This document shows positions 2,038 to 24,304 of a DNA stretch of 27,455 nucleotides, piece after piece. Source of the stretch: a phage; the NCBI GenBank assembly GCA_011944185.1, contig GCA_011944185.1_3921.2. One strand, written 5' to 3'. A program made the position numbers and the translations under genes. Position 1 is the stretch's first letter; each line of letters starts with the position of its first letter. The notes beneath the pieces were generated by a model. It did not search any database. It had not been told where the DNA came from and saw only the letters and a list, made by a program, of their open reading frames with translations.

Positions 2038-2238
2038 ATGAAGATGAGAGTAAAAGACAATTTTAAAGTTATTGACCACCGTTTAGTGGAACTCTCATCT
2101 CTTTCCAATGAGGTAATGATTGAACGTCTTAAGAGAGTTGAATCACGAAGGAAAGAGATTGCAGATGAAATTCATGAACTGGACAAGATTGAAAATGGAT
2201 TGAAGGCAGAACTACAACGAAGAGGTGCTAATGTCTAA
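2038..2238 (+). CDS. hypothetical small protein (predicted coiled coil)
   Basis: 66-aa ORF, charged and helical in composition; RBS AGAGAGA before the ATG; stop overlaps the primase-helicase start. Confidence 0.45.
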   Translation: MKMRVKDNFKVIDHRLVELSSLSNEVMIERLKRVESRRKEIADEIHELDKIENGLKAELQRRGANV

Positions 2239-4216
2239 AGGTCGTAAATTGAAAGAGGCTGGTCAGTTTATTGGTCATTGTGCATGTCCACGTTGTGGTT
2301 CATCAGATGCTGGTTCAATCTATCATCATGACGATGATTCTTATTCGATGACTTGCTTTAGTTGTAACAAAGGTTTCCCAGAGTGGGATTTTGATAAAGG
2401 ACAAATCGTGAGCACTTATTCTACTGGTTCAGACAATAAAAACCGTACTTTCCGTGGAATGGATTTAGACGATGTAAAAGAAAACCTAGAAGCAATGGAC
2501 TTGAAAGACAGGAAGATTCCTGCAAAAGTCCTTGAACGCTTAGGTATCAAGGTTGACATTGACAGTGACGGTGAAATTGATGCGCACTTCTATCCAACTT
2601 ACAAACGTAATGAAGATGGTAAGCTAGAACATGTTGGCTACCGTGTTCGTCACCGTTACCCAGAAGACCATCCAAAAGAGCACCTACGTGGTAAGCTAAA
2701 AGACTTTTCTGGTGGTGTTGGAGACATTAAAGGTGAACTGGCAATGTTCGGCTCATGGATTGCTCCAGAAGGTGGTAACCGTCTATTCATCTGGGAAGGT
2801 GAGATGGAATGTGCGACAGCAATCTACATGACTTCTTTGGCGATTAAAGATAAGTCTCGTCGTAAGAATTACTGTCACGTATCTGTTCCGTCAGGTGCAA
2901 ACATTAAGTCTATCAAAGATAACTATCAGTACATTACATCATTTGATGAAATTTACTTGTGCTTTGATAACGATGAAGCAGGTGCTAAAGCTACCAAAGA
3001 GGCTGCTGGTATCCTACCTATTGAGAAGGTTCGTTTATTCCAGTATCCAGAAGGTGTAAAAGACCTTAACGAATGGTGGACAAAGTTCTATAAAGAGAAA
3101 GACACAGTTCTTGAAGGGTTTAAGCAGCGTATCTACAATGCGCCCCGTTACTGCCCTGCTGGTATCAAGAACTTCGCAGATGGTTTTGAGGCAATGAAGA
3201 ATCGTGGTCAGATTCCATTGATTCCTTTCCCAGAATCTTTCGGAGATTTGAACAGGCTGACTTATGGCGGTTATGGTTTAGGTGAGATTACAACTCTGGC
3301 AGCACCATCTTCAGTGGGTAAATCAGCATACACTCGTGAAATGATTTATACTGCTTGGAAAGATACCGATTACAATATTGGTGTAATTCCGGTCGAAGAT
3401 ACCTATGAAGAGTTGATGGAGATGCTCTGTGCAATCCACCTCAGCAAGCAGATTTCTGAGATTCCTTATGACGAACGTGATTGGGATGAATTGAAGGAAG
3501 CACATGCAGAGCTATCTAAAGGTCGTCGTATCCACATCGTAGACCATCAAGGTGCAATTGACCAAGATAACCTGCTGGAATTTGTTGACTATCTTGTTAA
3601 CAGTTTAGACTGTAAGATTATTATTCTTGACCCTATCACGTTAGCTCTGTCACGTTCAGATACGGATGAAGAGGAAGTTTTGTCTGAGCTATTGCGTCGT
3701 TGCAAACGCTACCAGTATGCGCAGGTAAACGTATGTCACGTTCGTAAGAGTGCAGGTGGTCAGAAAGCTAACTCTGAAGGTGGGGATATCTCTGAAGAGG
3801 ATATCAAGGGTTCTGGTGCGTATTTCCAGATTTCCATGAATAATATTTTGTTAATGCGTAACAAGGTTGACCCAGACCCTGTTAAGAAAAACTTGACAAA
3901 AATCAAGTTAACTAAATGTCGTCGTCACGGTAAGTCAACGGGTATTGCTGGTCATACTTGGTACAATCCAGATACAGGGCGTCTCATTAAAGCATCTGGT
4001 TGTGGAGTTGACATTGATGGTGCAGCAGAAAATATTCGCCAACAGTTTGGTATTGGCGAAGCTGAAGACCATTACGATGACTCTTTGCCACATTATGAGG
4101 ATGAAGTGTTTGACCGTGAGACTGGTGAAGTCTATACTGAAGAGCAGCGTCAAAGCTCAACGATTCCACCTGTATTAAGTGAGGATGCAGATGACTGCCC
4201 ATTCGAAACTGAGTGA
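2231..4216 (+). CDS. bifunctional DNA primase/helicase (T7 gp4-like)
   Basis: N-terminal Cys4 zinc ribbon (CPRCGSSDAG...CFSCNKGF); TOPRIM-like acidic core (EGEMECATAIY, CFDNDEAG); DnaB-type Walker A (AAPSSVGKSAYT) and Walker B (KIIILDPIT). The ORF track starts at a GTG at 2225; I prefer the ATG at 2231 preceded by GAGG. Confidence 0.85.
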   Translation: MSKGRKLKEAGQFIGHCACPRCGSSDAGSIYHHDDDSYSMTCFSCNKGFPEWDFDKGQIVSTYSTGSDNKNRTFRGMDLDDVKENLEAMDLKDRKIPAKVLERLGIKVDIDSDGEIDAHFYPTYKRNEDGKLEHVGYRVRHRYPEDHPKEHLRGKLKDFSGGVGDIKGELAMFGSWIAPEGGNRLFIWEGEMECATAIYMTSLAIKDKSRRKNYCHVSVPSGANIKSIKDNYQYITSFDEIYLCFDNDEAGAKATKEAAGILPIEKVRLFQYPEGVKDLNEWWTKFYKEKDTVLEGFKQRIYNAPRYCPAGIKNFADGFEAMKNRGQIPLIPFPESFGDLNRLTYGGYGLGEITTLAAPSSVGKSAYTREMIYTAWKDTDYNIGVIPVEDTYEELMEMLCAIHLSKQISEIPYDERDWDELKEAHAELSKGRRIHIVDHQGAIDQDNLLEFVDYLVNSLDCKIIILDPITLALSRSDTDEEEVLSELLRRCKRYQYAQVNVCHVRKSAGGQKANSEGGDISEEDIKGSGAYFQISMNNILLMRNKVDPDPVKKNLTKIKLTKCRRHGKSTGIAGHTWYNPDTGRLIKASGCGVDIDGAAENIRQQFGIGEAEDHYDDSLPHYEDEVFDRETGEVYTEEQRQSSTIPPVLSEDADDCPFETE

Positions 4217-4286
4217 TAGTTACAAAAGAGAGGGGTTCACACCCTTCTTTGAAGAAAAAAGTTTAAATGAATTTCAGGAAGAGTGT

Positions 4287-4315
4287 TTGACAAAGGTTGA
4301 TAGGTTCTATAGAAT
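4287..4315 (+). promoter_or_regulatory. sigma70-like promoter P1 (TTGACA-N17-TAGAAT)
   Basis: TTGACA at 4287-4292, 17-nt spacer, TAGAAT at 4310-4315. Shares the extended context GTTTGACAA with the copies at 4626 and 24275. Confidence 0.5.
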
Positions 4316-4468
4316 GCTCTACATGAAATGTGATGGAGGTGTTGAGGTAGAAGAAAAGTTCCATCACAGCATAATCACAGTCACTATTACTATACCTAAA
4401 CATAATATTGGTTGGCTGTTTGTAATAAAAGAAAATGTGTTTGAATATCAAGTATATCGGAGAATATC

Positions 4469-4618
4469 ATGAAACACTCTAAAGCATTTGAAAAAGTTTT
4501 TGGGGATTCCTTAAAAGCCACTGCTGGAAAACCAGCAAAATACTATGAAGAGAAGCGTGTAAGAACTGGAAAAACTGCACGTAAAGCAGCTTCTAAAGAT
4601 AAGCACAACTTCCAGTAA
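4469..4618 (+). CDS. candidate small lysine-rich protein (49 aa)
   Basis: ORF not in the supplied track (below 60 aa): MKHSKAFEKVFGDSLKATAGKPAKYYEEKRVRTGKTARKAASKDKHNFQ. GGAG lies 7 nt upstream of the ATG; sits between promoters P1 and P2. Confidence 0.3.
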   Translation: MKHSKAFEKVFGDSLKATAGKPAKYYEEKRVRTGKTARKAASKDKHNFQ

Positions 4619-4625
4619 TTAATGT

Positions 4626-4654
4626 TTGACAATAGAGTATCAACAAACTAGAAT
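4626..4654 (+). promoter_or_regulatory. sigma70-like promoter P2 (TTGACA-N17-TAGAAT)
   Basis: TTGACA at 4626-4631, 17-nt spacer, TAGAAT at 4649-4654; about 36 nt upstream of the ATG at 4691, which has an AGAGG RBS. Confidence 0.55.
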
Positions 4655-4690
4655 TGGTACTCTTCATAAATTGAGATAGAGGTTTAAATA

Positions 4691-5548
4691 ATGTCTAAAG
4701 TTGTTAAAATGAAAGCTCCGGTAGAGAAATACAATGGCACTGAACGCCAAACTCTGCGATACCTGCTGAAAGATGTCTGGTTTTATTACCTGAACACTTC
4801 ACCACGTCCGGGAAAAGGTAAGTCTATTGATAAGAAATTCCCAGGCAAAGACTGTAACTACAGCGTATCAATTCTGGCAGAAGACGGTAACAAACTGTTT
4901 AAAGAGTTTACTAAGTCTAAGAAAAATCCAGAAGGTTGGGATAAAGTCACTACTGAAGCAGTTGATGCAGACGACTTCGAAGAGAAGTTTGGTTGTAAAC
5001 CACCTTTTGAAGCAGACACTTACTACATCTTGAAAGTAAGTCGTGCAGCAGCTTATAAAGATGGTGCTGTATGGACAGCTAAACAGTCATTCCCTGTTAT
5101 GCTTATTGAAGAAGTAAATGGTAAGCGTGTAGCTGTTAAGCAGCCGATGAAGAAAATCAAAGCTCAAGCATCTGATAAACATGAAGATGATAAGAACTAT
5201 GATGTAATTCATCCAGATATTGCAGTTGGTAACGGTTCTTTTGGTAGTGTGATTCTTTCTACTCACTTCTACACTTTTGAGAACAATGTTCTGACAAAAC
5301 CTATTCAGGAACAGTTTATCATTGATACTCTTGTACCTTACACTGGTGGTAACGGTGCTAACGGTGAACCTGAACTGGATGAAGACGAACTGGCTATGCT
5401 TGGTCTTGATGGTGTCGAAGATAACGGTGAAATCACTGAAGAAGACGCAACAGACCATAAATCTTCGAATGAGTCTGATGATGGTGATGATGAAGATTTG
5501 CCAGACCCAGATGACGAAGAAGATGAAGACTTCGATACAGAAGACTAA
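4691..5548 (+). CDS. putative single-stranded DNA-binding protein (acidic C-terminal tail)
   Basis: 285-aa ORF directly behind promoter P2. The last ~45 residues are very acidic (DDGDDEDLPDPDDEEDEDFDTED), a hallmark of phage and bacterial SSBs (T7 gp2.5, T4 gp32, E. coli SSB). Sits between the primase-helicase and the exonuclease. No fold-level motif verified. Confidence 0.4.
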   Translation: MSKVVKMKAPVEKYNGTERQTLRYLLKDVWFYYLNTSPRPGKGKSIDKKFPGKDCNYSVSILAEDGNKLFKEFTKSKKNPEGWDKVTTEAVDADDFEEKFGCKPPFEADTYYILKVSRAAAYKDGAVWTAKQSFPVMLIEEVNGKRVAVKQPMKKIKAQASDKHEDDKNYDVIHPDIAVGNGSFGSVILSTHFYTFENNVLTKPIQEQFIIDTLVPYTGGNGANGEPELDEDELAMLGLDGVEDNGEITEEDATDHKSSNESDDGDDEDLPDPDDEEDEDFDTED

Positions 5549-24274: not shown

Positions 24275-24304
24275 TTGACAAGGGGCTTTGAAGCCCCTTA
24301 GAAT
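24275..24304 (+). promoter_or_regulatory. sigma70-like promoter P3 (TTGACA-N18-TAGAAT) with a perfect hairpin in the spacer
   Basis: TTGACA at 24275-24280 and TAGAAT at 24299-24304; the whole 18-nt spacer is the palindrome AGGGGCT-TTGA-AGCCCCT (24281-24298). Same GTTTGACAA context as P1 and P2. Lies between rIIA and rIIB. Confidence 0.5.

Follow-up and report, generated by a model that had tools for sequence, protein, structure and literature searches.

Is the 474-bp interval at positions 4217-4690 of the analysed phage DNA, which separates a primase/helicase gene from the gene for a 285-aa protein, a regulatory region or a part of the coding sequence? The stretch of DNA analysed as a whole, here called the window, comprises 27,455 nucleotides, and a sequence-only reading had taken the interval as its longest low-coding stretch, namely a regulatory gap with two promoters (P1 and P2), a 9-bp inverted repeat in a possible leader or small RNA, and a short lysine-rich ORF. 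We identified the window as Felixounavirus DNA (Felix O1/wV8 group), with Escherichia phage JLBYU32 as the best match (99.0% identity). A query of 701 bases around 4217-4690 matched 258 phage records, with 92-98% identity in the wV8 / Felix O1 group (Felixounavirus) and about 70% nucleotide identity in 43 records from other Ounavirinae genera. We conclude with high confidence that four genes of the replication module of a Felix O1-like phage meet in this region, all in the same direction and in this order:

2225..4216, plus strand: primase/helicase gene, Felix O1 gp101 (phrog_239, E = 1.2e-184; Toprim and DnaB_C Pfam domains)
4191-4472, plus strand: ORF A, Felix O1 gp102 and wV8 gene 109 (phrog_4982; 93 aa, ATG at 4191, stop codon at 4470-4472)
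4469-4618, plus strand: ORF B, Felix O1 gp103 and wV8 gene 110 (phrog_4424; 49 aa, ATG start)
4691..5548, plus strand: gene for a 285-aa protein with an acidic tail, Felix O1 gp104 (phrog_3877)

The first of these genes is labelled as primase/helicase in the records of the relatives as well, and its stop codon at 4214-4216 follows an acidic C-terminus (...EDADDCPFETE, encoded within 4180-4216). The start of ORF A overlaps this end by 26 nt, while the stop codon of ORF A and the start codon of ORF B overlap via the sequence ATGA. The supposed low-coding gap is thus filled by two protein genes except for the 72 nt at 4619-4690, the sole non-coding part of the interval, and both P1 and the inverted repeat, which had been tentatively assigned to a regulatory leader or small RNA, sit inside the conserved 93-aa coding sequence. 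ORF A and ORF B are the same genes as gp102 and gp103 of Felix O1 and occupy the identical position between primase/helicase and gp104; nothing material differs between the two arrangements, and ORF A of the window carries a wV8-type allele. The re-annotation of Felix O1 lists gp102 with 93 aa and a pI of 6.6 and gp103 with 49 aa and a pI of 10.2 (Whichard et al. 2010, PMC3185647). Both genes have been annotated before, as coding for hypothetical proteins, and the region contains no new kind of element.

Both ORFs are annotated in most of the approximately 258 related phage records, including those of wV8, JLBYU32, SUSP2, Michonne, mistaenkt, KPS64 and UAB_Phi87. The original Felix O1 record includes ORF A, and a few others, such as those of BPS15Q2 and Henu11, carry no annotation for it. 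At about 70% nucleotide identity, Suspvirus and Mooglevirus phages possess a 92-codon ORF A that overlaps both neighbours in the same way, and Pectobacterium phage Wc4-1 shows a similar gene order with a 97-codon ORF in the position of ORF A. Of the 42 loci fetched, 40 had intact frames of ORF A and ORF B; the exceptions are MET-P1-301 and EC6, in which single-base deletions in homopolymer A runs break ORF A, and in MET-P1-301 ORF B is broken as well. Because of these deletions, which are probably sequencing errors, ORF A is left unannotated in both records. The A run concerned corresponds to 4253-4258 of the window.

We propose that ORF A and ORF B would be translated from the transcript of the replication module, with a gene packing that would allow translational coupling of the two along the operon transcript. 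In phage T7, the primase/helicase gene 4 is followed by the small overlapping ORFs 4.1, 4.2, 4.3, 4.5 and 4.7. ORF A and ORF B resemble these in their packing after a T7-type primase/helicase gene, which is an analogy of layout only, as we detected no similarity in sequence or fold between the two sets. The locus illustrates that a "gap" in the raw sequence of a phage replication module can consist of two tightly overlapping small genes, which matters little beyond annotation hygiene. The 285-aa protein downstream, which had been labelled as SSB-like, ends in a very acidic C-terminal tail (...DEEDEDFDTED, encoded within 5480-5548); it gave no significant Pfam or PDB sequence match, and PADLOC was uninformative. 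The acidic tails of this protein and of the primase/helicase resemble the C-termini of T7 gp2.5 and gp4, respectively.

The sequence-only reading had also pointed to an inverted repeat just behind P1. We confirmed it as a perfect 9-nt repeat with the arms TGTGATGGA at 4329-4337 and TCCATCACA at 4360-4368, which lie 22 nt apart:

4329..4368, plus strand: 9-bp inverted repeat in codons 47-60 of ORF A, with arms encoding K-C-D-G-G and F-H-H-S

Perfect 9-nt inverted repeats with loops of 3-40 nt occur eight times in the window, compared with 6.5 +/- 3.5 in first-order Markov simulations, and the probability of at least one such repeat in 474 nt is 0.09; one perfect repeat of this length can be expected by chance in 27 kb of AT-rich DNA. 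The repeat falls in the 90-nt segment with the highest diversity in the region (4320-4409). Of 36 unique relatives, only the 13 with an identity to the window of 96.8% or more retain 8-9 of the 9 pairs of the stem, and one of these has a G-U variant in the stem. Felix O1-type arms (e.g., TGCGATGGG / TCCACCAGA) form 4-7 of the 9 pairs without compensatory change, and with 2-3 of 9 pairs the stem is absent from Suspvirus and Mooglevirus. A check for conservation or covariation in related phages was accordingly negative, since the repeat is perfect only in a wV8-like subclade and no compensatory pair was found; under the condition set by the sequence-only reading, this refutes the repeat as a conserved element. 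Folded over its full length, the predicted P1 leader (4322-4470) is no more stable than shuffled sequence (z = -0.62); the excised hairpin at 4329-4368, a segment chosen after the fact, reaches -13.8 kcal/mol (z = -4.2). A search of positions 4000-4900 against Rfam at a permissive threshold yielded the S15 leader as the sole match, which is not credible at 17.3 bits versus a gathering score of 39.5 (E = 0.23). As an intrinsic terminator, 4329-4368 was rejected in view of its 22-nt loop, a 3' sequence (GCATAATCACAG) without a T-run and a silent terminator scan. The hairpin in the 5' UTR of ompA is the known example of a 5' stem-loop that stabilises an mRNA. The 9-bp repeat is similarly close to the 5' end of a transcript (that predicted from P1), but it would be preceded by approximately 7 unpaired nt, is part of a coding sequence and lacks conservation.

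We read the inverted repeat as incidental, i.e., as a lineage-specific by-product of the ORF A codons in one allele of the hypervariable sheet region, without a conserved role. It might instead represent a recently acquired regulatory hairpin of the wV8-type phages, serving as an mRNA stabiliser or RNase site in P1 or operon transcripts, and the retention of 8-9 pairs in 13 of 13 unique window-like sequences, one with the G-U variant, would agree with this. However, these 13 sequences are near-identical throughout the segment, so that shared ancestry explains the retention, and there is no compensatory pair among them. Four other 9-nt repeats with comparable loops (21-34 nt) fall inside genes elsewhere in the window, and with its 22-nt loop the structure is weak in the context of the entire predicted leader. 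We consider a hairpin function in this lineage improbable and retain the reading as a by-product of the coding sequence.

The ORF A product matched the phrog_4982 HMM with E = 1.9e-49 (residues 1-93 on profile positions 1-92 of 92), the members of which are Felix O1 gp102-like proteins of 92-97 aa, and 70 clusters (90% identity) were retrieved in a database search, nearly all of them exactly 93 aa long. The frame stays open across sequences with 37-42% amino-acid identity and has a counterpart with 16-19% identity in Wc4-1, while the single indel among the relatives is 3 nt long. Where residues differ, they do so conservatively (I/V, K/R, D/E, F/Y), and the relatives share the motifs EGFxPF, ECLT and FEYxxYRR. 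For the variable half of the gene, the diversity within Felixounavirus amounted to 0.103, 0.036 and 0.177 at codon positions 1, 2 and 3, respectively. The dN/dS values of 0.14-0.64 (Nei-Gojobori) are high for a phage core gene, compared with 0-0.13 for the flanking genes. As judged from the retained frame and the excess of synonymous changes in the alignments, ORF A evolves as a protein. Based on a 30-sequence alignment of database-derived homologues, AlphaFold2 produced a model with a pLDDT of 82 and a pTM of 0.71 (pLDDT >90 for 46 residues), in which a disordered N-terminus precedes a helix (22-46) and an antiparallel sheet of four strands (52-90). Searches against Pfam, PADLOC and PDB sequences gave no informative match for ORF A, and a BFVD search returned family members only.

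The possibility that ORF A is not translated, its frame being open by chance or by a constraint at the DNA level, would turn 4217-4468 into a 5' leader of ORF B. The dN/dS of up to 0.64 and the missing annotation in the BPS15Q2 and Henu11 records are compatible with this, and the low synonymous diversity in the first half of the gene suggests a constraint at the nucleic-acid level. Against it stand an AT-rich frame of 93 codons that remains open at the low identities given above, even in Wc4-1, a lone indel that is a multiple of three, the conservative replacements with retained motifs, the maximum of variation at third codon positions and the 46 residues modelled with a pLDDT >90. We regard an untranslated ORF A as very unlikely. 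A further reading is that of a non-coding leader or small RNA starting at P1 and occupying 4217-4468, with the 9-bp 5' stem-loop stabilising or regulating the transcript: P1 matches the consensus strongly and the excised hairpin is stable and begins approximately 7 nt from the predicted 5' end, but this reading is largely refuted because the repeat is not conserved, decaying without compensation in Felix O1-like phages and missing from Suspvirus and Mooglevirus, and it is further opposed by an intact 93-codon ORF in most of the 70 clusters and in three genera, with coding substitutions and a confident fold, as well as by the unremarkable folding of the whole leader, the absence of an Rfam match and the chance frequency of the repeat, which together render it extremely unlikely.

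ORF A of the window is of the wV8-type in its variable middle and 84% identical to the Felix O1 protein. This middle part (4320-4409) is a hotspot of variation with a diversity of 0.14-0.18, compared with at most 0.058 in the other 30-nt bins of 4080-4769, and gp102 thus presents itself as a variation hotspot flanked by almost invariant DNA. Judged by its gene neighbourhood alone, our best guess is that ORF A codes for a fast-evolving host-interaction protein. Two deep haplotypes of the ORF A middle coexist within one genus (pS 0.33, pN 0.11). Next to the hotspot, 4440-4710 (the end of ORF A, ORF B, the spacer and the start of the next gene) is near-invariant, synonymous sites included, and the diversity is zero at 4560-4619 and 4650-4709.

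Another potential secondary structure was noted at the beginning of the gene:

4227-4250, plus strand: 10-bp hairpin, 11 nt past the helicase stop codon (-13 kcal/mol, z = -2.5)

It coincides with the conserved ORF A codons for E-G-F-x-P-F, in which Pro is encoded by CCC in 26 of 27 unique sequences. We rejected it as a canonical terminator, as it has no downstream U-run and sequence variants break as well as restore its pairs. A programmed frameshift fusing the helicase with ORF A was set aside as well: ORF A is in the +1 frame, the open overlap comprises only 38 nt, and no slippery motif was seen. A 62-codon ORF on the minus strand (4263-4451), which lies wholly within ORF A, corresponds to ORF247 of the original Felix O1 record; it is probably spurious, since the variation by codon position fits the plus-strand frame.

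For the second ORF, the sequence-only reading held up. A lysine-rich ORF of 49 aa was present at 4469-4618 with 11 Lys and 3 Arg residues (net charge approximately +9) behind a GGAG ribosome-binding site, and the suggestion that it may code for a tiny protein was borne out, as it is a real and strongly conserved gene in terms of dN/dS, an unchanged ribosome-binding site and a second gene context.

4459-4462, plus strand: GGAG ribosome-binding site of ORF B, 6 nt before the ATG, within the ORF A codons CGG AGA

The ORF B product matched the phrog_4424 HMM over its entire length (E = 7.4e-36, residues 1-49 on profile positions 1-49 of 49), the members of which are Felix O1 gp103-like proteins of 45-49 aa. 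It is 100% identical in 171 phage records, those of Felix O1 and wV8 included, and being identical in this number of genomes, gp103 is among the best-conserved small proteins of these phages. The dN/dS was 0-0.26, with a dS of 1.3-1.5 versus the other genera, and the region of the ribosome-binding site, TATCGGAGA, is unchanged in all eight sequences of an alignment covering three genera (A1); the GGAG itself is unchanged wherever the layout with the ATGA overlap is present. By the same sequence test as applied to ORF A (frame kept, synonymous excess), ORF B evolves as a protein.

The family of ORF B comprises 16 clusters at 90% identity, and an exhaustive profile search of 1.84 billion representative proteins added just two further true clusters. 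Two other matches of the profile are long multi-stretch proteins, one of which (P0109) was inspected, found to be a repeat protein and discarded as spurious. The family is thus confined to Ounavirinae-like phages and consists of few clusters. A homologue with 72% identity occurs in an unrelated contig (Logan contig SRR26282644_116395; L043 1215-2514), in the order FEN-like exonuclease, an unrelated acidic 97-aa ORF, the homologue, a canonical intrinsic terminator, a 272-aa protein and DNA ligase. Because the homologue sits in an unrelated contig amid such genes, ORF B is an autonomous gene that stays with genes of DNA metabolism. The model of ORF B shows three short helices at modest confidence (pLDDT 67). 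We obtained no Pfam match at E <= 1, no informative PADLOC match, no significant PDB sequence match (best E = 0.36) and no Foldseek match, the latter being a weak test of the fold at this pLDDT. An InterPro note in the KPS64 record points to a helix-turn-helix or lambda-repressor-like DNA-binding domain, for which neither the sequence searches (Pfam, PDB) nor Foldseek with the pLDDT 67 model gave a match. From the gene neighbourhood alone, our best guess for ORF B is that of a small, basic protein with an accessory role in phage DNA metabolism.

The two promoters proposed for the region proved to be well founded as sequence elements, since the motif TTGACA-N17-TAGAAT was found twice and the positions of both copies are conserved across three genera. 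They are listed here together with a third promoter-like site upstream and a short repeat at P2:

4110-4138, plus strand: promoter-like TTGACC-N17-TATACT inside the helicase gene, same sequence as Felix O1 P102
4287-4315, plus strand: P1, sigma-70-type TTGACA-N17-TAGAAT (-35 at 4287-4292, -10 at 4310-4315) in ORF A codons 33-42
4626-4654, plus strand: P2, sigma-70-type TTGACA-N17-TAGAAT (-35 at 4626-4631, -10 at 4649-4654) in the spacer 4619-4690
4634-4639 / 4658-4663, no strand assigned: 6-bp inverted repeat AGAGTA / TACTCT, bracketing the P2 -10 hexamer

P1 and P2 are exact matches to this motif, 339 nt apart, whereas the expectation for the entire window, even if one mismatch is permitted, is just 0.40 matches, so the pair is above chance. 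Compared with the E. coli sigma-70 consensus TTGACA-N17-TATAAT, each agrees at 11 of 12 positions and has the optimal spacer of 17 nt; they differ from canonical sigma-70 promoters in the extended upstream sequence TGTTTGACAA and the -10 hexamer TAGAAT, and P1 in addition by its location inside a coding sequence. Both the upstream sequence and the TAGAAT hexamer recur at a third site at 24275, and Felix O1-like phages carry a recurring promoter type TGTTTGACAA-N13/14-TAGAAT with a spacer of 17 or 18 nt.

In Suspvirus and Mooglevirus, the geometry of P1 is preserved as TTGAC(T/G)-N17-TAAAGT, and no promoter match was found at the equivalent position of Wc4-1. The T at -12 of P1 (4310) never varies, even though it closes four different codons (TAT, GCT, TGT, GGT), and the Leu codon TTG in the -35 hexamer is likewise invariant. 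Because P1 lies within the ORF A codons for E-C-L-T...Y-R-M, its conservation is confounded by the constraint on the protein. P2 appears in Suspvirus and Mooglevirus as TTGACA-N17-TAAGAT, TAACAT or TAATAT and in Wc4-1 as TTGACA-N17-TAACAT, and the diversity of its spacer within the genus is 0.022. T-12, A-11 and T-7 of the promoters are kept across the genera. We conclude that P2 is very likely functional, while for P1 the balance tips slightly towards function. The predicted transcript starts are near 4322 for P1 and near 4661 for P2. Host RNA polymerase would then also start at P2 within the 72-nt spacer and boost the expression of the 285-aa gene, and a probable start at P1 inside ORF A would yield a transcript expressing ORF B and the downstream genes without ORF A.

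Whichard et al. (2010, PMC3185647) argue that Felix O1 depends on host RNA polymerase; their promoter list contains the P102 site corresponding to 4110-4138, and P1 and P2 are missing from it. Nor does the published promoter table of UAB_Phi87 have an entry at the P1/P2 locus, and we found no mapped transcription starts or RNA-seq data for Felix O1-like phages in the published literature. The -35 hexamer of the 4110-4138 site is conserved in the other genera, and its -10 hexamer partly (TACACT/TACACA).

The 6-bp repeat around the -10 hexamer of P2 reads GGAGTA / TACTCC in Suspvirus and Mooglevirus, which represents one compensatory A-T to G-C change, and it extends to 7 bp in one contig. In the alignment, 85% of the cells are paired, compared with 42-61% in slid controls. 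The repeat may serve as an operator, or it may form a hairpin in RNA that reads through from upstream. Several of these elements can be combined into one scheme, in which the gp103 family would be a tiny DNA-metabolism or DNA-binding factor that moves between replication modules independently of its neighbours, gp103 would act at the P2 repeat in an autoregulation of the 285-aa gene, P1 would uncouple the expression of gp103 from that of ORF A, and the hypervariable sheet of ORF A would form an arms-race interface with a host factor. Taken jointly, we think this scheme unlikely.

Finally, the tandem promoters at 4110, 4287 and 4626 next to a T7-type primase/helicase gene could be taken as a transcription-activated replication origin like the primary origin of T7, given three co-directional promoter-like sites within 550 nt, a helicase resembling T7 gp4 and the unusually high conservation of 4440-4710 down to synonymous sites; yet the region offers no non-coding AT-rich tract and only one spacer, of 72 nt, neither GC skew nor AT skew shifts along it, no iterons or other direct repeats were seen in the stretch that was read, and promoters are expected anyway upstream of an abundantly needed gene of the replication module, which leaves an origin at this locus hardly plausible.

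Two further observations were made on the way. The third extended-type promoter, GTGTTTGACAA...TAGAAT, is located at 24275-24304 in the spacer after a gene for a 788-aa protein, and its own 18-nt spacer holds the palindrome AAGGGGCTT-TG-AAGCCCCTT, so that a terminator-like hairpin is nested in the promoter. The records GU169904.1 and MG065664.1, named Staphylococcus phage SA1 and Campylobacter phage A132, carry the Felixounavirus locus with 92-98% protein identity, which suggests that these two records are contaminated or mislabelled.
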